Source of the DNA: Escherichia coli O127:H6 str. E2348/69
GTDB lineage: Bacteria > Pseudomonadota > Gammaproteobacteria > Enterobacterales > Enterobacteriaceae
Reading direction: 5' to 3' (one strand)
Assembly: GCF_000026545.1 (NCBI RefSeq)
Contig: NC_011601.1
Length of the DNA stretch: 64,000 nucleotides
In this document: positions 2,686 through 55,332 of the stretch, piece after piece
Layout of the letters: every line of letters begins with the position of its first letter
Position numbering within the stretch: the first letter of the stretch is position 1
Position numbers and translations under genes: made by a program
Notes under the pieces: model-generated
What the model saw: the letters and a program-made list of their open reading frames with translations, nothing else
Told to the model about the DNA's origin: nothing
The model's database searches: none

Positions 2686-3813
2686 ATGTCGTGCCCGGTT
2701 ATTGAGCTGACACAACAGCTTATTCGCCGCCCTTCCCTGAGTCCTGATGACGCAGGATGCCAGGCTTTGTTGATTGAACGTTTGCAGGCGATCGGTTTTA
2801 CCGTTGAACGCATGGACTTTGCCGACACGCAGAATTTTTGGGCATGGCGTGGGCAGGGTGAAACGTTAGCCTTTGCCGGGCATACCGACGTGGTGCCGCC
2901 TGGCGACGCCGACCGTTGGATCAATCCGCCGTTTGAACCCACCATTCGTGATGGCATGTTATTCGGGCGCGGTGCGGCAGATATGAAAGGCTCGCTGGCG
3001 GCGATGGTGGTAGCGGCAGAACGCTTTGTCGCACAACATCCCAACCATACGGGACGACTGGCATTTCTGATCACCTCTGATGAAGAAGCCAGTGCCCACA
3101 ACGGTACGGTAAAAGTCGTCGAAGCGTTAATGGCGCGTAATGAGCGTCTCGATTACTGCCTGGTCGGCGAACCGTCGAGTATCGAAGTGGTTGGTGATGT
3201 GGTGAAAAATGGTCGTCGCGGATCGTTAACCTGTAACCTTACTATTCATGGCGTGCAGGGGCATGTTGCCTACCCACATCTGGCTGACAATCCGGTACAT
3301 CGCGCAGCACCTTTCCTTAATGAATTAGTGGCTATTGAGTGGGATCAGGGCAATGAATTCTTCCCGGCGACCAGTATGCAGATTGCCAATATTCAGGCGG
3401 GAACGGGCAGTAACAACGTTATTCCGGGTGAACTGTTTGTGCAGTTTAACTTCCGCTTCAGCACCGAACTGACTGATGAGATGATCAAAGCGCAGGTACT
3501 TGCCCTGCTTGAAAAACATCAACTGCGCTATACGGTGGATTGGTGGCTTTCCGGGCAGCCATTTTTGACCGCGCGCGGTAAACTGGTGGATGCGGTCGTT
3601 AACGCGGTTGAGCACTATAATGAAATTAAACCGCAGCTACTGACCACAGGCGGAACGTCCGACGGGCGCTTTATTGCCCGCATGGGGGCGCAGGTGGTGG
3701 AACTCGGGCCGGTCAATGCCACGATTCATAAAATTAATGAATGTGTGAACGCTGCCGACCTGCAGCTACTTGCCCGTATGTATCAACGTATCATGGAACA
3801 GCTCGTCGCCTGA
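2686..3813 (+). CDS. dapE: Succinyl-diaminopimelate desuccinylase
   Basis: 375-aa ORF, M20 peptidase motifs ([15 protein letters not shown]). Confidence 0.95.
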
Positions 3814-4121: not shown

Positions 4122-4820
4122 TTACATCATTTCAATCACATCATCATCGCCAGGCTTACCGCCGCTTAGCGCTTCGTCGAAATAATGTTTCGGAATGGTA
4201 TAACGCAAGTGATCCAGGGCTAATTGCATACTGCGATTGTCGATCGCATGGCCTAAATCCTCCACGATATCCAGCGTCACATCGCCACCGGCACTGATTA
4301 ACGCTTCCTGCGCCGCAACCGCATGCGCCAGATCGATAACCGGATCTTCACCGCCATGAATCAAGTGAATTGTTGTGGCTGTAGACGCGGTTTCCGGCAG
4401 GCTCGCGTAGCGTCCGTTGAAGGCAATGACGCGCGAAGCAAGGCCCGGTTCGGCTTTAATGCTCTCCAGCGCCATAATCGCGCCTTGTGAGAAACCGATT
4501 AGCGCCGTGGCATTAGCCCCTACTCCGCTTTGTTTCTGCCAGTAGCGCACCGTCTCAATAAACGTCGGCATGATAGCATCCACACGCGCCTGGCGATTAT
4601 CTTCCGTAATACCCTGCACCGAAAACCACTGACGCCCCGCCGGATTACCGCTCGGCTCCGCGCCACCGACACTCACCACCAGCGCATCAGGAAACAGCGG
4701 CGCAAACCAGCTGCCTATTTCCCCCATTGCCACCGGGTTATCCCCGACACCGTGGAAAAGCAGTAACAACTGTTGTGCTGGTTTATCCGGGCTTTGAACA
4801 ACAAAATGGTCATGTTTCAT
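4122..4820 (-). CDS. ypfH: Esterase YpfH (phospholipase/carboxylesterase family)
   Basis: ORF 4122..4844; likely start at internal MKHDHFVV; alpha/beta hydrolase motifs. Confidence 0.9.
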   Translation of the reverse strand: MKHDHFVVQSPDKPAQQLLLLFHGVGDNPVAMGEIGSWFAPLFPDALVVSVGGAEPSGNPAGRQWFSVQGITEDNRQARVDAIMPTFIETVRYWQKQSGVGANATALIGFSQGAIMALESIKAEPGLASRVIAFNGRYASLPETASTATTIHLIHGGEDPVIDLAHAVAAQEALISAGGDVTLDIVEDLGHAIDNRSMQLALDHLRYTIPKHYFDEALSGGKPGDDDVIEMM

Positions 4821-50320: not shown

Positions 50321-50616
50321 TTGTCTTTCTCCTGAGACTCAGCGGCCATTTTCAGATACTGTTCAGGACAGTGCGCCATGACGCGCTGAAACAATGCCAG
50401 TGCCAGGTTGCGCTGCCCTTCGTTGAATGCAGTTAAGTGCGAATCACCAGCGAAGCATGGTGAGAACACCTTTCCCCTCTCCAGCATCGACCAGATAACG
50501 CGGCGGCCTTGCTCGCTACCCATAACGAACTTGATGTCGTCGATATCACGCTGAGCCAGAAGTTGCTGTTTGGCGTCAAGCTCTGCTTTGCGTCCTTCGT
50601 CGTCGATATCCATCAT
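50317..50616 (-). CDS. Hypothetical head-module protein
   Basis: 99-aa ORF overlapping both neighbours. Confidence 0.5.
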   Translation of the reverse strand: MMDIDDEGRKAELDAKQQLLAQRDIDDIKFVMGSEQGRRVIWSMLERGKVFSPCFAGDSHLTAFNEGQRNLALALFQRVMAHCPEQYLKMAAESQEKDK

Positions 50617-52283
50617 TGCTGCGGTGCTCCTGCTGCATTAGCGATAGCAGTTAATGCGCTCGGGTCGCTGGTCTGCGTTTCGCTGAGAGTCTTGGCCCCC
50701 TGCGCTGCCGCCTGACCCATAGCCATTGCCTGTGCCGCCTGAGCCTGTTTAGCTCGCTCTTCACGAATACCCTGTACCTGCTCCTGCGGAACGATGACGG
50801 TTGGCGATACGCCTGACATTTCAGAGAACGCGTCGATAGCCTGATCCACATCAAGCTTGTCGAGCGCTTCAGGTTTGAACTGCGCCAGTTGCCCGATAAA
50901 TCCAACTGTCTGCGACAGGCTGGTGAGGCCGATAGATTTCTGAGCCTGAGCCATCACAGAGATGTACTCGATACGCAGCGGCATACCCTGAAGAACGTCA
51001 GGAGGTTCGGGCAACATGTTCTTGCGGGCCATGATTGAGAACACGCGATCGATAAGCGGGTTAAGCGCTTCGTCATTCAGGCGCTCAAGCACCGGGCCAA
51101 GCATCAGCAGTTTCTCTTCCTTCATCTCGATCACCGCTTCCACCGGCATAGATCGGGTGTTGATTTTTTGCAGCATCATGAAGAGGTCAACGAAGTAGGC
51201 GCTGTTGATGGTCTGCCTAGTGTCCTGAATGTCAGCCAGCAGGTCGGCGGTATTCGGGTTTACCAGGTATGCAGGTTTGAAACCATCCTGACCGGTCAAC
51301 ACGTCGAGATATGTCACATCGCCAGGCAACAGGGAAACACGCTGATTCTTGAGCGATGTTGGGGCAACCATCGGCGGGTTAGTGGCTTTATCGATCAGCT
51401 GAGCTTTGCGCTTCTGCTCAACCTGAAGTGCTTTAACCTGACCGAGTGCCAGCATACCAGGGCAAGATGAGGCGTAAACGTCTTCGCCATTCACTTCCCA
51501 GCGCGGCGCCAGAATAGGGAATTCATCAAATCCGGATTCACGCAGCAGCTTGTCGGAGTCGCCGCCAGACTCGAAATAGACAGAGCGGTAAGGCTTGTTC
51601 TTGCTGTCCATCTTCCCGCTGTCGCGGTTGACGTTAGGTGTGATGCAGTGGTTAACCTTCACCCACGTTTCATACGTGCCGTTTTCCCACATGCCTTTTA
51701 CGGATGTGCTGACGTTATCCAGACCGAATTCCTGCACCATCTGGCGCACGGTCATGGAGAACTGGCGAATGCAGGTGTCTACGCTACCGCGCGGACTGTT
51801 AGCCAGGTAGTAACTGCCAATAGGGAAAGGCATTGTGCGGATCACGTCCTGGTCATCTTCCAGAACAGCCATAGCGCCGGTGCCGAAAGTACCCAGACTT
51901 GCGTACATAACAGGCAGTGACTGATACAAATTCGATTTGTTGAACACTTCGTTCATGCGGCGCTGCACGACTTCCAGCCAGATTTTCACCGGGCCATAGT
52001 CCATCATGTCAGGGTCAGGCGTTGCCAGTTTGAACCACGGTCGTGCCGGACTGGTGATGCCTGACATCATGCCGCTGGACAGAATTCGCTGAGCCATTGA
52101 GCCAGTGGGATCAACAATCTTGGTGTTACGGCGATCATCACGGTTTACATCAGATGTCAGAAAGCGGGAGCCACGCGGATTGATGAAGTCACTAAGATCA
52201 CGCCAATGCGATTCGAACGATGTGCGCTCATTCTTCAGCTGTGCGAGCTGCTTCAGCAGGCGCTCTTTTTCGGTTTCCGCCAT
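50613..52283 (-). CDS. Portal protein
   Basis: 556-aa ORF, first large gene of the head operon. Confidence 0.7.
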   Translation of the reverse strand: MAETEKERLLKQLAQLKNERTSFESHWRDLSDFINPRGSRFLTSDVNRDDRRNTKIVDPTGSMAQRILSSGMMSGITSPARPWFKLATPDPDMMDYGPVKIWLEVVQRRMNEVFNKSNLYQSLPVMYASLGTFGTGAMAVLEDDQDVIRTMPFPIGSYYLANSPRGSVDTCIRQFSMTVRQMVQEFGLDNVSTSVKGMWENGTYETWVKVNHCITPNVNRDSGKMDSKNKPYRSVYFESGGDSDKLLRESGFDEFPILAPRWEVNGEDVYASSCPGMLALGQVKALQVEQKRKAQLIDKATNPPMVAPTSLKNQRVSLLPGDVTYLDVLTGQDGFKPAYLVNPNTADLLADIQDTRQTINSAYFVDLFMMLQKINTRSMPVEAVIEMKEEKLLMLGPVLERLNDEALNPLIDRVFSIMARKNMLPEPPDVLQGMPLRIEYISVMAQAQKSIGLTSLSQTVGFIGQLAQFKPEALDKLDVDQAIDAFSEMSGVSPTVIVPQEQVQGIREERAKQAQAAQAMAMGQAAAQGAKTLSETQTSDPSALTAIANAAGAPQQ

Positions 52284-52297
52284 CTCTGCCTACTCCG

Positions 52298-52504
52298 TTA
52301 CTGACCAAGCAGCGTTTTACCGCTGGTGTTTGCGGTTGAAGTGTCACCCTGCGCACCAGTCAGCAGAGTAGAGCTGCGCCCTGCTGCTGCGCGGCGGCGG
52401 CGCTCTTCGTCGTCACGAGAACTGACAACTGCTGCATCCTGCTCCTGTGGCGCAGCCTGTACTTCTGGCGCTGCTGGCACTGATGGCTTGCTGCCGATAC
52501 ACAT
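52298..52504 (-). CDS. Small basic protein upstream of portal
   Basis: 68-aa ORF ending 15 bp before the portal start. Confidence 0.4.
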   Translation of the reverse strand: MCIGSKPSVPAAPEVQAAPQEQDAAVVSSRDDEERRRRAAAGRSSTLLTGAQGDTSTANTSGKTLLGQ

Positions 52505-52593
52505 AGCAATAGCTCCGTACGCAATTAAATTATTACCAATTTAACCACATATGATTTATTTAGCGTAGGATATTGACACTTATAACATCAGAT

Positions 52594-52610
52594 ATTACCT
52601 TTTAGGTAAT
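52594..52610. promoter_or_regulatory. Operator-type palindrome ATTACC-N5-GGTAAT (site a)
   Basis: ATTACCTTTTAGGTAAT with TTGACA 16 bp upstream; lies between the head operon and the plus-strand island. Confidence 0.5.
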
Positions 52611-53056
52611 TGGTTCGTGTGTTGAATTGATGAATTGCGGAGGTGGTTATGTAACCGCTTGTGCAGTAGCCCGGAGTACCGCAGCAATAAATTGGGCTTA
52701 AAAGTAAAGGCGGTGGATAAGCGGAGCATCATCTCCGCACATAACTAAAAGCGCGCTTCAGTGAATGACCTTTGAGCCTGGTCGTTAAATCCAAACGGTG
52801 GAGTGCGCTTTCAGGTGTGTAGCAGTACGGCATATGGCACATGTGCCGCAGCGGTCCGGATGGGTTCCCTTGATGCTACTTCCCCAGCCGGGTAGCCGGA
52901 ATGTGCAAGCCAGTGTTAGGTAAGCACGGACAGACGATTCACCATCGTGGCGATACGGTGTGACACCTCGGAAGAGACGAGGATGCAACGATGATAGCAT
53001 TGGGGTGACCGGTTAATCCCATGACGATAACCGATACAGGCGCAGTGCTCTCTTCG

Positions 53057-53169
53057 TTGTGGTTAGCTCAGATAGGTTAGAGCTCCATCCATGCTTGCCA
53101 TTGCTGCATGGGCGGGGAATGGGTTCCGAAAGGATCGCCGCGCAGGTTCGAATCCTGCACCACAACCCA
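53057..53169 (+). ncRNA. tRNA-like element with non-canonical 58-nt middle region
   Basis: 7-bp acceptor stem (TTGTGGT/ACCACAA), D-arm TAGCTCAGATAGGTTAGAGC, T-arm GCAGGTTCGAATCCTGC, discriminator and encoded CCA; no standard anticodon arm. Confidence 0.5.
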
Positions 53170-53338
53170 ATCACGCCTTAGGACCGTGATGAAGCGCCCA
53201 TAAGAACAATGCTGTGTAGCCTTTGGCGGTGGCAGTTTCCCTTGATGCTGACCACCGTCACTTTTACACCAGAACGCCATTGCGATGACGTTGCGCTGTA
53301 AACCCGTAAGCCATGGAAGGCACCCTTGCTTCCATTTC

Positions 53339-53363
53339 GCCCGGTTCGTCCGGGCATTTTTTT
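53339..53363 (+). terminator. Intrinsic terminator downstream of the tRNA-like element
   Basis: GCCCGG-TTCGT-CCGGGC hairpin followed by ATTTTTTT. Confidence 0.65.
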
Positions 53364-53375
53364 AAGGTGATTAGA

Positions 53376-53807
53376 ATGAGTAAAGACCTGTTCGACATGA
53401 AGCGCCTTCCGGTTGACCGGGTTGCTGCGAGAGTTGTTGGTAAGGGCGTTGATTGGACGCCAAATAAAGTTATTCAAACTGGTGACAGCGATCTTCCGTT
53501 GCCAGTATTTCCTGCATATAACATTAAAAACCCGCAACAACGACGCGAAGTGCAAGCAATGATCGGAAGAAAGAGCGGGAGATTGACAATAATTGGTCTC
53601 GCGGTCACACAGGGAGCAAAAAATAAAGGGGCTCGCTATGTTGCTCGTTGTGTTTGCGGGATTTATACGTATCGCAGAGCAAAAAATTTCAAGAATAATT
53701 CTGATGATTTTGACGGATGCGAGCGCTGCAGAGAACTGTTGTTTCTCAAAAGGGAAGAAGTTAAACGCAGAACGGGAAAATGGGTTGACTGGAAAGAGCT
53801 GATGTAA
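53376..53807 (+). CDS. Cys-rich protein of unknown function (moron gene)
   Basis: ATG at 53376 with AAGGTGA ribosome-binding site; 143 aa containing CVCG...CERC; opposite strand to the flanking terminase and portal genes. Confidence 0.55.
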   Translation: MSKDLFDMKRLPVDRVAARVVGKGVDWTPNKVIQTGDSDLPLPVFPAYNIKNPQQRREVQAMIGRKSGRLTIIGLAVTQGAKNKGARYVARCVCGIYTYRRAKNFKNNSDDFDGCERCRELLFLKREEVKRRTGKWVDWKELM

Positions 53808-53827: not shown

Positions 53828-53852
53828 AGCCCGCCGATGCGCGGGCTTTTTC
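53828..53852 (+). terminator. Intrinsic terminator after the Cys-rich ORF
   Basis: AGCCCGC-CGATGC-GCGGGCT hairpin followed by TTTTT. Confidence 0.6.
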
Positions 53853-55332
53853 ATGCATAGGGATCGTACTCTGTGAGAGCCTTGCCCTGTTGGCTCTGTT
53901 GCTGCCCATAGTTAAACTGTTTTTTGGTGACCGGCGCGGCATATGTCAGCACGTAGGCGTCGGCATCGTTCGGGGATCTGCCAAGCAACTCTTTGACTTC
54001 TTCCTTGTCCTGCAAAATCTTCCTGCTGTCCTTCAGCCTGACCTTGTACTCCGGCGCACTCAGCTCATCGGCAAGGTTCTGGCTATCCAGTTGCGCCCCA
54101 AGCTTCAGTGCGTCGCGGGCTGATTTGTACATCTCCCCGCGCTTATTGCCCATCTCGGGATCCGCGGTACCGCTTCCGAACTGAATCAGCGTCCAGTTTC
54201 GCCCCCAGTTATCGCCAACTGATTTAAGCCCGGTCCCGTACCCGTAATCGATAAACACAGCATCGGCCTGGTACTGGTCCTCGAAGTCGGCAATTATTTT
54301 GGCAAACAATACGTCGTCAGTGGTGCGTTGCCACTCCCCGAGTTTCTTACAGTGCAGTCCCTGCCGAAGATAGATAACCGCCGGGTCTTTACCCTGGTGA
54401 GACGGGTCGACGCCAAGAACTACAGCAGCGTGCTGAACCTGTGCCGGAGTAATAACCCTGCCAACAGCTGGCTGAGTCAGGCCAGACGGAATGAACTGGT
54501 TTTCAGACGCATCAGGGAAGATCCCGCGCACGCGAACCTTCACGAAGTCGCTGTCTTCGCCGTAGTCGTCCACCCACTTTTGCAGTTGCTGCTTGTTGGT
54601 GCCTTCCACGGTGCGGCTGTCAATCTGCGCGCACTTCCAGCGGTGTTTGTACTTGCGGAAACATTCACGGAAACGCCCGGTGTTACGCGTCGGGTTACCG
54701 AACGCCACCCAGATGATTTCGGTGTCTTCGTCCGTCAGCGCCCCTTCAGCTACCTCCCACACCAGATCGGCAATGTTGGATGCTTCGTCGAATACCACGA
54801 TGATGCGCTTGCGCTCGTTGTGCAGCCCTGCGAACGCCTCGGTGTTGTGTTCAGACCATGGGATTGCGTCAGCGCGCCAGCGTTTATCGTGACCGGGATC
54901 GTTGCTGTACATCGCTGTGGCGGTGCAGGTGAACCACTCTTTCGTAATAGCCAGGTTCGACCATTTGATGATTTCCGGCCATGTCTTGGTACGCAACTGA
55001 TTGTCGGTGTTGGCGGTCACCACCACCTTGCAGTCCTCGCAGGTGGACATGCCCCAGTTAATCAGCATCGAGATGAAAGCAGATTTGCCGATACCATGGC
55101 CGGATGCGCGCGCCAGCATCAAAGGCTGGTGACGCGTCGCTGGGTTCTGGAGGTGATCGCGTATCTCGCGGAAGGCGTCAGCCTGCCACTTTCTGGGACC
55201 TGTGGCGTGCGCCAGCTCTGTGCCATCCTCTCCCCACGGAAACGCGTACAGCGCATAGCCCAGCGGGTCATACGTGAACGAGGCGATATCCTCAACGAGC
55301 TGCTCTTCCGGCGACATGGCTTCGGCTGTCAT
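53851..55332 (-). CDS. Terminase large subunit
   Basis: 493-aa ORF with ATPase-like and nuclease-like regions, downstream of the small-subunit gene. Confidence 0.8.
   Translation of the reverse strand: MTAEAMSPEEQLVEDIASFTYDPLGYALYAFPWGEDGTELAHATGPRKWQADAFREIRDHLQNPATRHQPLMLARASGHGIGKSAFISMLINWGMSTCEDCKVVVTANTDNQLRTKTWPEIIKWSNLAITKEWFTCTATAMYSNDPGHDKRWRADAIPWSEHNTEAFAGLHNERKRIIVVFDEASNIADLVWEVAEGALTDEDTEIIWVAFGNPTRNTGRFRECFRKYKHRWKCAQIDSRTVEGTNKQQLQKWVDDYGEDSDFVKVRVRGIFPDASENQFIPSGLTQPAVGRVITPAQVQHAAVVLGVDPSHQGKDPAVIYLRQGLHCKKLGEWQRTTDDVLFAKIIADFEDQYQADAVFIDYGYGTGLKSVGDNWGRNWTLIQFGSGTADPEMGNKRGEMYKSARDALKLGAQLDSQNLADELSAPEYKVRLKDSRKILQDKEEVKELLGRSPNDADAYVLTYAAPVTKKQFNYGQQQSQQGKALTEYDPYA

Follow-up and report, generated by a model that had tools for sequence, protein, structure and literature searches.

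An apparently undescribed pseudoknotted RNA core and a non-decoding tRNA-like element in a modular non-coding unit of an Escherichia coli prophage

The GOLLD and ROOL RNAs are encoded by phages and prophages, lie beside tRNAs or contain them, and have pseudoknotted cores with variable inserts, their function being unknown (10.1101/2024.12.08.627333). The put RNA of phage HK022 is a compact, folded nascent RNA that follows closely on an early phage promoter and precedes terminators and cargo genes (PMC9378689). In the dicB operon of the Qin prophage of Escherichia coli K-12, an early, repressor-controlled untranslated leader is processed to yield DicF, a small RNA that consists of a hairpin followed by a U run and is bound by Hfq. 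Finally, in the MALAT1-mascRNA system and in tRNA punctuation, a tRNA shape that does not decode lies 3' of a structured RNA, and its cleavage by RNase P makes the 3' end of that RNA. Here, a non-coding stretch of prophage PP10 of E. coli O127:H6 str. E2348/69 is described and compared with these systems. The stretch lies in a sequence of 64,000 nt from contig NC_011601.1 (assembly GCF_000026545.1), hereafter the window, and it carries a conserved core RNA, a tRNA-like element of 113 nt, and small RNAs reported to bind Hfq. Window positions equal NC_011601 positions minus 2,784,000, a conversion that follows from the supplementary annotation of PMC8550237. Over 52505-53376 (872 bases), the sequence matches E2348/69 with 100% identity.

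PP10 is an epsilon15/phiV10-like prophage of the genus Uetakevirus, with Salmonella phage epsilon15 and E. coli phage phiV10 among its kin, and its RNA unit is inserted, reading rightward, among the leftward late genes, with the terminase genes on one side and the portal gene on the other. An earlier reading of the window from its letters and open reading frames (ORFs) alone, hereafter the sequence-only reading, had placed a hairpin-rich insertion without a convincing ORF between terminase and portal. The gene coordinates agree, the late genes being on the opposite strand, and the stretch is non-coding because its homologues show both compensatory changes and indels that are not multiples of three. 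A decayed coding gene is ruled out by the same covariation and indels, and the ORFs called in relatives overlap conserved helices. The region 52612-53060 is more stably folded than its shuffles (RNAfold, z = -3.73). The whole intergenic region was aligned for eight Uetakevirus sequences (E2348, E. coli PM4, PAT1, Tyrion, SPC32H, phiV10, a Klebsiella prophage [KPC3 phage], and epsilon15), which gave the following order of modules: promoter and operator, leader module A, leader module B, core, closing helix P6, tRNA slot, a hairpin, a DicF-like hairpin with a U run, and a conserved stretch with a strong terminator. The core, P6, the post-tRNA hairpin, the DicF-like hairpin, and the terminator are common to the aligned relatives, except that epsilon15 is without the core and tRNA. 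As the alignment indicates, the unit is modular and not a single RNA, being made up of lineage-specific leaders, a shared core, an exchangeable tRNA slot, and two downstream small RNAs. The sequence-only reading had proposed a tRNA mimic or a larger structured RNA with a tRNA-like 3' domain; a structured RNA is present and P6 overlaps the acceptor strand of the tRNA-like element, and the idea of one RNA has to give way to that of a modular unit. The account favored here, with slightly more confidence than doubt, is that of a repressor-controlled, rightward non-coding RNA operon whose polycistronic precursor would be cut by RNase P at the tRNA-like element, the latter acting mainly as a processing handle.

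It should be noted that epsilon15 (3001-3490 in locus coordinates) is without everything that lies between two copies of the direct repeat TTCCCTTGATGCT, such that the core, P6, and tRNA are gone. In the window, this repeat is found at 52865-52877, in the P2 loop of the core, and at 53237-53249, in the loop of the DicF-like hairpin, and these positions match the end-points of the epsilon15 deletion. The gap looks as if it had arisen by recombination between the TTCCCTTGATGCT copies. More broadly, the phage units may be read as mosaics assembled from a common pool of early-leader RNA modules.

The part of the unit that matters most is the core, which the sequence-only reading had left unmarked. 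Covariance model R1 finds it with a score of 159.5 bits (E = 3e-49), and this is the sole copy in the window. The core comprises a 9-bp helix P1, helix P2 with a GUA bulge, a GCC/GGC junction helix, a variable hairpin P3, helix P4, and helix P5 with the loop GAAGAGA, and the P4 loop CACC pairs with a downstream GGUG to form a pseudoknot. P1, P2, the junction helix, P4, P5, the invariant GGUAGCCGGAAUGUGCAAG, and the CACC/GGUG pseudoknot are all found in the window copy. The two local stems named in the sequence-only reading are present as well, GGCACA-TG-TGCC at 52836-52847 and the other, GCGGAG-CATCAT-CTCCGC, in leader module A. When the structure was tested on 47 distinct homologous sequences, 95.9% of the cells in paired columns could pair, versus 28-43% when the partners were slid against each other. 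Moreover, 95 cells carried changes on both sides of a pair, as opposed to 29 +/- 3.7 in shuffled alignments, and none of 500 shuffles reached 95. A total of 11 core pairs show compensatory change, one of them a pseudoknot pair that changes from C-G to A-U in Stx-type sequences; the check for covariation in homologous prophages that had been suggested for this region is thus borne out. Because G.U pairs are frequent in the core, the RNA strand is the plus strand. Taken together, the core is a genuine structured RNA, and its family appears to be without an earlier description. Rfam 15 has no family on the core in gathering-score or E-value scans of the window and 12 related loci, and a full-text search for an invariant 16-mer together with keywords, with subscription-only papers outside its reach, found no published description. 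Within that scope of literature, the core and the closing helix both appear to be new.

A BLAST search with the region showed that unrelated phages match it over the core only. P1 and P7 carry the core in the ban operon, which is under C1 control and has, besides the tRNA-Ile and ban genes that flank the core, two further tRNAs and a region annotated as dicF-like. Three lambdoid phages (mEp390, BUCT708, and Stx2a_WGPS2) have it immediately after the cI repressor gene and in the same orientation, and in Klebsiella phage SopranoGao (genus Lastavirus) it follows the lysis genes and starts at about +1 of a TG-extended promoter. In BUCT708, a promoter (2348-2376) is followed by the core and then by a terminator (2781-2797; locus coordinates). 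An exact search for the invariant GGTAGCCGGAATGTGCAAG returned at least 120 IMG/VR contigs, as well as 24 matches among species-representative genomes; 22 of these are in Enterobacteriaceae or Erwiniaceae, and the other two are short metagenome-assembled contigs labelled Bacillota and Lachnospiraceae that probably represent contamination. By BLAST, the core is carried by 656 of 5426 complete E. coli genomes (12%, about one in eight). A total of 72 of the E. coli core places are on plasmids, and those sampled are about 90 kb, the size of P1. Many of the E. coli matches share identical statistics (74% identity to the window copy) and come mostly from human isolates, among them ST131 strain EC958 (NZ_HG941718.1, 2080329-2080479). 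None of 30 sampled E. coli matches has an annotated feature under the core. In three phages, ORFs annotated as hypothetical lie over the conserved RNA or tRNA region, namely mEp390_036 (2578-2820), PhiV10p04 (1932-2183), and Tyrion gp54 (1906-2067; all locus coordinates), and these are probably spurious gene calls. The position of the core behind repressor-controlled early promoters, joined to tRNAs and DicF-type small RNAs, suggests that it takes part in early lytic development or in the handling of long untranslated phage transcripts.

These positions bear on one alternative in particular, namely that the core is a cis-acting leader for processive antitermination, put-like but unrelated to put, which would allow polymerase to read through terminators into the cargo ORF or into a lambdoid leftward early (PL) operon. 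By analogy to HK022, the location of the core next to cI, with a good promoter ahead of it in mEp390 and BUCT708, is that of putL (PMC9378689), and the SopranoGao core likewise stands behind a promoter. A strong terminator separates the core from the next ORFs in BUCT708 and in all Uetakevirus relatives, and in the window the ORF beyond the terminator begins 13 nt past the U run with no promoter-like site found between the two. Further, the ORFs downstream of the core in the three lambdoid phages match no named function, that of an N-type antiterminator included, and the P1 core is inside the long untranslated ban leader. Against this, the core has no sequence or model similarity to putL. Put sites come as a pair, putL and putR, whereas mEp390 has a single core copy and none in its rightward early (PR) operon, even with filters off. 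In mEp390 and Stx2a_WGPS2, no plus-strand terminator was detected beyond the core. In the Uetakevirus relatives, a tRNA lies directly downstream, and cleavage by RNase P would detach the RNA from the polymerase; put, however, tolerates loss of this tether. On this evidence, antitermination by the core is regarded as doubtful.

Next to the core, P6 encloses an insert of variable length: 40 nt (E2348), about 95 nt (SPC32H), or over 300 nt (PAT1). The two strands of P6 are linked across loci: all 16 distinct loci that have AGGTAAGAGC on the 5' side have GCTCTTTCC on the 3' side, and GATGAG[A/G]GC occurs with GCTCTC[AG/TT]C in 24 of 25. The 3' strand (53045-53056) and its homologues, GUGCUCUUU / GUGCUCUCU, resemble the boxA consensus UGCUCUUUAACAA; because it covaries with its 5' partner, the constraint on this boxA-like stretch is that of a helix. 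The P6 3' strand GTGCTCTnnnCGTTGTGG is found 145-540 nt after the invariant 19-mer in 95 of 162 loci, and what follows it varies: tRNA-Arg(TCT), directly, in 26 loci, a module of GTGAAT plus a hairpin in 22, a module like the P1 dicF-like region in 22, the tRNA-like element in eight, a PAT1-type module in five, tRNA-Ile in two, and others. The hairpin ATCACGCCTTAGGACCGTGAT, which is directly 3' of the tRNA slot, follows the genuine tRNA-Arg and the tRNA-like element alike in relatives. The P6 inserts of SPC32H (about 1780-1900) and of Stx phages (Stx2a_WGPS2, about 2610-2700; both locus coordinates) contain two T-arm-like hairpins, CTGGTTCAATTCCAG and GTCAGTTCGATTCGGAC / GTCCGTTCGATTCGGTC, which are further tRNA-fragment-like modules within the structured RNA.

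A second alternative can be weighed here, that the core, P6, and its inserts form a stand-alone, trans-acting lytic RNA that, by analogy with GOLLD and ROOL, might bind protein or ribosomes or might self-assemble, with the tRNA-like element as a working part or as cargo. Like GOLLD and ROOL, the RNA is borne by phages and prophages and is physically joined to tRNAs (10.1101/2024.12.08.627333). Its invariant single-stranded stretches, its pseudoknot, and the T-loop-like hairpins in the P6 inserts are consistent with such a role, as are its occurrence in unrelated phage types (P1, lambdoid, Uetakevirus, and SopranoGao) and the possession of its own promoter and terminator in BUCT708 and SopranoGao. 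Weighing the other way, the conserved core is only about 160 nt, far below the size of GOLLD or ROOL, and the Rfam models of both RNAs give no match at the gathering score or at E <= 10 in the window and 12 related loci. A trans-acting lytic RNA is thus entertained tentatively, as a serious possibility that falls short of probable.

The tRNA-like element that ends the P6-bounded region has been labelled a pseudogenic tRNA-Gly by the NCBI annotation pipeline (PGAP), and the original genome annotation lists the non-coding RNA E2348C_ncR36 at exactly the same positions. The architecture that the sequence-only reading had assigned to it was recovered in full. The acceptor stem is a perfect 7 bp, or 8 bp if G53056 is paired with C53166 (G-1:C73); the discriminator is C; CCA is encoded; and both the T arm, GCAGG-TTCGAAT-CCTGC, and the D arm, with its GG, are intact. 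In the remaining 58 nt, RNAfold gives a 6-bp stem with the 11-nt loop UUGCCAUUGCU at the position of the anticodon arm, followed by a 31-nt extra arm in which a GCGG/CCGC stem surrounds a GAAA hairpin. The fold of 53056-53169 has an energy of -47 kcal/mol, versus -36.4 +/- 3.5 for shuffles (z = -3.06). Scanned alone, the element matches RF00005 with 35.8 bits (gathering score 29) across model positions 1-71; the match runs through the acceptor, D, and T arms, and 41 nt are treated as an insertion where a tRNA would have its anticodon arm. When Rfam was run on the whole window or on 1.1 kb, speed filters kept the element from being reported. ARAGORN called neither a tRNA nor a tmRNA in the window, and there was no Rfam tmRNA match. 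Thus, of the characters of a tRNA, the element has the acceptor, the D arm, the T arm with a GTTCRANYC loop, and the discriminator, and it is without the 5-bp stem and 7-nt anticodon loop and outside the length range of 74-95 nt. Because it is without a 7-nt anticodon loop, the element cannot decode. Nor is it a standard tRNA with a small insertion, and its odd arms keep compensatory changes.

Only four variants of the element turned up, one of the E2348 type, two of PM4 types, and L033 from IMG/VR. In their alignment, 96.3% of cells pair, versus 34-45% when partners are slid, and three pairs show compensatory change: one pair of the anticodon-like stem and the closing pair of the GAAA hairpin both go from C-G to A-U, and a T-stem pair goes from A-U to C-G. 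The 11-nt loop and the G-1:C73 pair are invariant in all four, and L033 is without an encoded CCA. The 8-mer GCCATTGC of the 11-nt loop (53097-53104) recurs at 53275-53282, in the invariant ACGCCATTGCGATGACG of the 3' small RNA, which is about what chance would give in 870 nt; no complement of the loop was found elsewhere in the unit. Between E2348 and PM4, identity is 95.6% over the element and 96.6% over its odd 58 nt, as against 52-57% over the P6 insert and the DicF-like region, making the element the best-conserved segment of the unit. These observations bear on the possibility that the element is a decaying tRNA pseudogene that has a junk insertion and is itself functionless. Such a pseudogene would agree with the PGAP label, with the want of a usable anticodon loop, with the normal tRNA-Arg, or nothing, that stands at the site in relatives, and with the rarity of the element (eight IMG/VR contigs and a handful of E. 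coli genomes). The conservation of the element next to variable neighbors and its compensatory pairs nonetheless argue against decay, albeit with the thin statistics of four variants, and the invariant loop and the intact D, T, and acceptor arms argue the same way. A decaying pseudogene is therefore considered unlikely. The conserved odd arms suggest that the element has an additional role.

In bacteria, the G-1:C73 pair is an identity mark of tRNA-His. The element keeps this pair and has no GUG anticodon, being without an anticodon loop, and it also keeps everything that RNase P, the CCA-adding enzyme, and T-loop-modifying enzymes recognize. A tRNA mimic that is aminoacylated or bound by enzymes, for example one that accepts histidine via G-1:C73, might then act as a decoy or inhibitor of host tRNA enzymes or of anti-phage tRNA nucleases. 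The intact acceptor, D, and T arms, the encoded CCA, the presence of the pair in four of four variants, and the conservation of arms that do not decode would all suit such a mimic. Acceptance of histidine is held here as a speculative lead because G-1 is also part of the conserved P6 strand CGTTGT, such that its presence may be incidental; in addition, CCA is not encoded in L033, and none of the known defence systems hints at a decoy of this kind. A mimic is regarded as very unlikely.

Downstream of the slot, two small RNAs complete the unit. In Hfq-based RNA interaction by ligation and sequencing (RIL-seq) data for enteropathogenic E. coli (EPEC), an RNA between E2348C_ncR36 and E2348C_2757 (2837204-2837266, equal to the DicF-like small RNA of Table 1) is chimeric with lpp in 25 fragments and also chimeric with bfpP, and it is always the second RNA of the chimera (PMC8550237). 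Table S6B of the same report lists E2348C_2757.EST5UTR (2837269-2837365, plus strand) as a new, EPEC-unique small RNA whose partners include the cfa 5' untranslated region (UTR) and perC (PMC8550237; Pearl Mizrahi et al., 2021). From these chimeras at 53204-53365, the plus strand is transcribed in lysogenic cultures. The first of the two RNAs has DicF-type features, namely association with Hfq in those data and a hairpin, GGCGGUGGCAG...CUGACCACCGUC, followed by a short U run, and its processing from an early leader is inferred; its score with the Rfam DicF model (RF00039) is 16.1 bits at 53211-53260, below the gathering score of 48. The second contains the invariant stretch ACGCCAUUGCGAUGACG and ends in a strong terminator that is 97% identical between E2348 and PM4. 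The sequence-only reading had noted this terminator about 170 nt beyond the tRNA-like element; it is there, and what needs correction is its assignment, since according to the RIL-seq listing it belongs to an Hfq-bound small RNA (PMC8550237).

At the 5' end of the unit, the TTGACA and the operator palindrome that the sequence-only reading had seen upstream are present. The TTGACA, ATTACC, and GGTAA bases are invariant in all eight aligned Uetakevirus sequences. In epsilon15, the palindrome ATTACCTTTTAGGTAAT carries the annotation of a repressor-binding site, and it recurs upstream of the small terminase gene. Of the two leader modules, A is found in four of the eight (E2348, PM4, PAT1, and epsilon15) and is missing from SPC32H, phiV10, and the KPC3 phage, and B is kept in most of the aligned relatives. 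The RNase III processing site annotated in epsilon15 corresponds to about 52722-52821 of the window and covers module B, and by analogy one leader hairpin is a likely RNase III site.

The layout of the unit, its structures with their covariation, the homology of the tRNA slot, and the association of the 3' RNAs with Hfq are established; for the favored processing account, the following sequence of events is proposed. Departure of the phage repressor from the operator would de-repress the promoter, and a single untranslated precursor of about 770 nt would be made, starting at the TTGACA promoter under the operator and ending with the terminator at 53363. RNase III would cut in module B, where epsilon15 has its annotated site and in keeping with what is known of the dicB operon, and RNase P would cut at the 5' boundary of the tRNA-like element, just as it would at the genuine tRNA-Arg(UCU) that relatives have in this slot. 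The latter cut would give the core RNA a defined 3' end and split it from the downstream small RNAs, which would end at their own terminators, and the tRNA-like element would serve as a processing or punctuation module more than as a decoder.

Several points weigh against this account. The -10 hexamer of the promoter is poor, and a consensus promoter scan did not report the TTGACA promoter. For 52612-53169, both the single precursor and its cleavage by RNase P are inferred. The end of P6, CGTTGT (53055-53060), shares the first four bases of the acceptor strand (53057-53060), and the P6 base and the acceptor stem therefore compete, such that both cannot be complete before cleavage. Punctuation alone also leaves unexplained the odd 58 nt, with their high identity, invariant loop, and GAAA hairpin kept by compensatory change, and the covariation statistics of the element are thin with only four variants. 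Lastly, many relatives are without any tRNA in the slot.

The positions of all features are collected in Table 1.

Table 1. Features of the PP10 RNA unit and of the genes around it, in window positions.
Feature	Position	Strand	Remarks
Portal gene	50613-52283	minus	
68-aa gene	52298-52504	minus	
Non-coding stretch	52505-53375	+	opposite to late genes
Promoter -35 (TTGACA)	52573-52578	+	read in sequence
Operator ATTACCTTTTAGGTAAT	52594-52610	+	palindromic; over -10/+1 region
Leader module A	52634-52739	+	lineage-specific; hairpins including GCGGAG-CATCAT-CTCCGC (52721-52738)
Leader module B	52747-52811	+	12-bp hairpin, AAAGCGCGCUUC pairs with GGAGUGCGCUUU; in minimum-energy fold
Core pseudoknotted RNA	52826-52984	+	covariance model R1
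Closing helix P6	52985-53002 with 53043-53060	+	encloses variable insert 53003-53042; in minimum-energy fold
tRNA-like element	53057-53169 (53056 with G-1)	+	E2348C_ncR36; PGAP pseudo-tRNA-Gly
Post-slot hairpin ATCACGCCTTAGGACCGTGAT	53170-53190	+	
DicF-like small RNA	53204-53266	+	hairpin, then short U run; Hfq-bound in RIL-seq data
Small RNA E2348C_2757.EST5UTR	53269-53365	+	ends in strong terminator
Intrinsic terminator	stem 53339-53355, U run 53357-53363	+	seven T; terminator scan
Cargo ORF E2348C_2757	53376-53807	+	143 aa; RefSeq coding sequence
Large terminase gene	53851-55332	minus	small terminase gene also minus

The Shine-Dalgarno sequence of the cargo ORF, AAGGTGA, abuts the terminator U run. 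The ORF product matches phrog_18493 (unknown function), has weak similarity to an HNH-endonuclease family (phrog_374, E = 1.9e-5), and has no Pfam match, which together yield no lead to its function. The cargo gene differs in every relative, encoding 61 to 173 aa, and includes one DUF2829 protein and one protein similar to that of Sf6 gene 66. Other Rfam RNAs were seen in the loci of relatives. The Rfam C4 antisense RNA and isrK lie side by side on the minus strand of Stx2a_WGPS2 (131-319), in the cII/regulator region, and the int-alpA RNA lies between cargo ORFs in phage Tyrion (2903-2967; all locus coordinates).

Of the parts of this unit, the tRNA-like element and the two 3' small RNAs had already been annotated or listed and never explained. 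The core, with its invariant 19-nt stretch, goes without annotation in the E. coli genomes that carry it and is also present in textbook phages, both in the ban leader of P1 and beside cI in Stx-converting phages, and should it prove to be an antiterminator or an RNA of the GOLLD/ROOL type, it would provide a genetically tractable E. coli model for a phage RNA class of open function. The tRNA-like element offers a clean natural case of a tRNA scaffold under selection after loss of the anticodon loop. Additionally, the unit accounts for two Hfq-bound small RNAs in EPEC interactome data, and it corrects the labels "pseudo-tRNA-Gly" and "hypothetical protein" in many phage genomes. A farther-reading claim, that the core founds a new functional class of phage RNA acting on a host machine (for example, as a protein-free processive antiterminator or anti-Rho RNA for early transcripts that are long and untranslated, or as an RNA-only assembly or decoy) and that the tRNA-like element is a non-decoding G-1:C73 mimic with a function beyond that of an RNase P handle, is given a modest chance at best.

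Several described RNAs were considered as identities for parts of the unit and rejected. The PasA-D small RNAs of E2348/69 are located in other prophages, and the window contains neither the PasB nor the PasC probe sequence. The AgvB, AsxR, and EcOnc small RNAs occupy late-region insertion sites downstream of PR' and are set apart by that context, without having been mapped against the core. The P1 c4 antisense RNA differs in location, since the P1 core match is in the ban operon and not in the immunity region immI. Homology to HK022 put was likewise rejected: putL, located by the primers of PMC9378689, shows no similarity, R1 has no match in HK022 at E <= 10, and mEp390 has the core as a single copy. 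The ydfC-dicF-dicB region of K-12 Qin is not the same unit, in that it has no core motif (R1, filters off) and shares short modules only.

Compared with the systems outlined at the outset, the core resembles GOLLD and ROOL in being phage-borne, pseudoknotted, tRNA-associated, and interrupted by variable inserts, and it differs in size, GOLLD and ROOL being 580-800 nt and the core about 160 nt (230-650 nt once P6 and its inserts are counted), and in that its hosts are Enterobacteriaceae and Erwiniaceae. HK022 put shares with the core its place just behind an early promoter, and it is shorter (about 70 nt), with two stems, whereas the core has a pseudoknot and a single copy per genome. With the dicB-operon leader, the unit has in common the plan of an early untranslated leader that leads to a small RNA of DicF type, and in the RIL-seq data the main partner of the DicF-like RNA here, lpp, sets it apart from the Qin dicF locus. 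The two share short modules: ggttgtggcaacccgcgaaatggcgcggcggtaagtatggcggggtta upstream of dicF in Qin (about 4252-4300, locus coordinates) is identical at about 44 of 50 positions to the module after P6 in Stx-type loci, and GTGGTGAATGCG, which is elsewhere found after P6, follows the dicF terminator in Qin (about 4455-4470, locus coordinates). Automated local alignments of Qin with the window are otherwise weak. The Qin leader may also hold a P6-like helix, GAAAGCGCA ... GTGCGCTTCCGGTTGTGG. The ban operon of P1 combines a dicF-like region, tRNAs, and the core. Handles of the mascRNA type are similar by analogy only, in that a tRNA-shaped element is found directly 3' of a structured RNA with a proposed RNase P cut, and they differ in that the context here is a bacterial phage and in that the element has extra conserved arms beyond what a simple handle would need. 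The closest relative of the tRNA-like element is the tRNA-Arg(UCU) of phiV10 and SPN1S, which occupies the same slot behind the same 5' leader CGTTGTGG, has an identical T arm GCAGGTTCGAATCCTGC, and precedes the same 3' hairpin; the element departs from it in its length, in the 6-bp stem, 11-nt loop, and 31-nt arm that replace a 5-bp stem and 7-nt loop, and in an acceptor stem that is shifted 2 nt into the leader.

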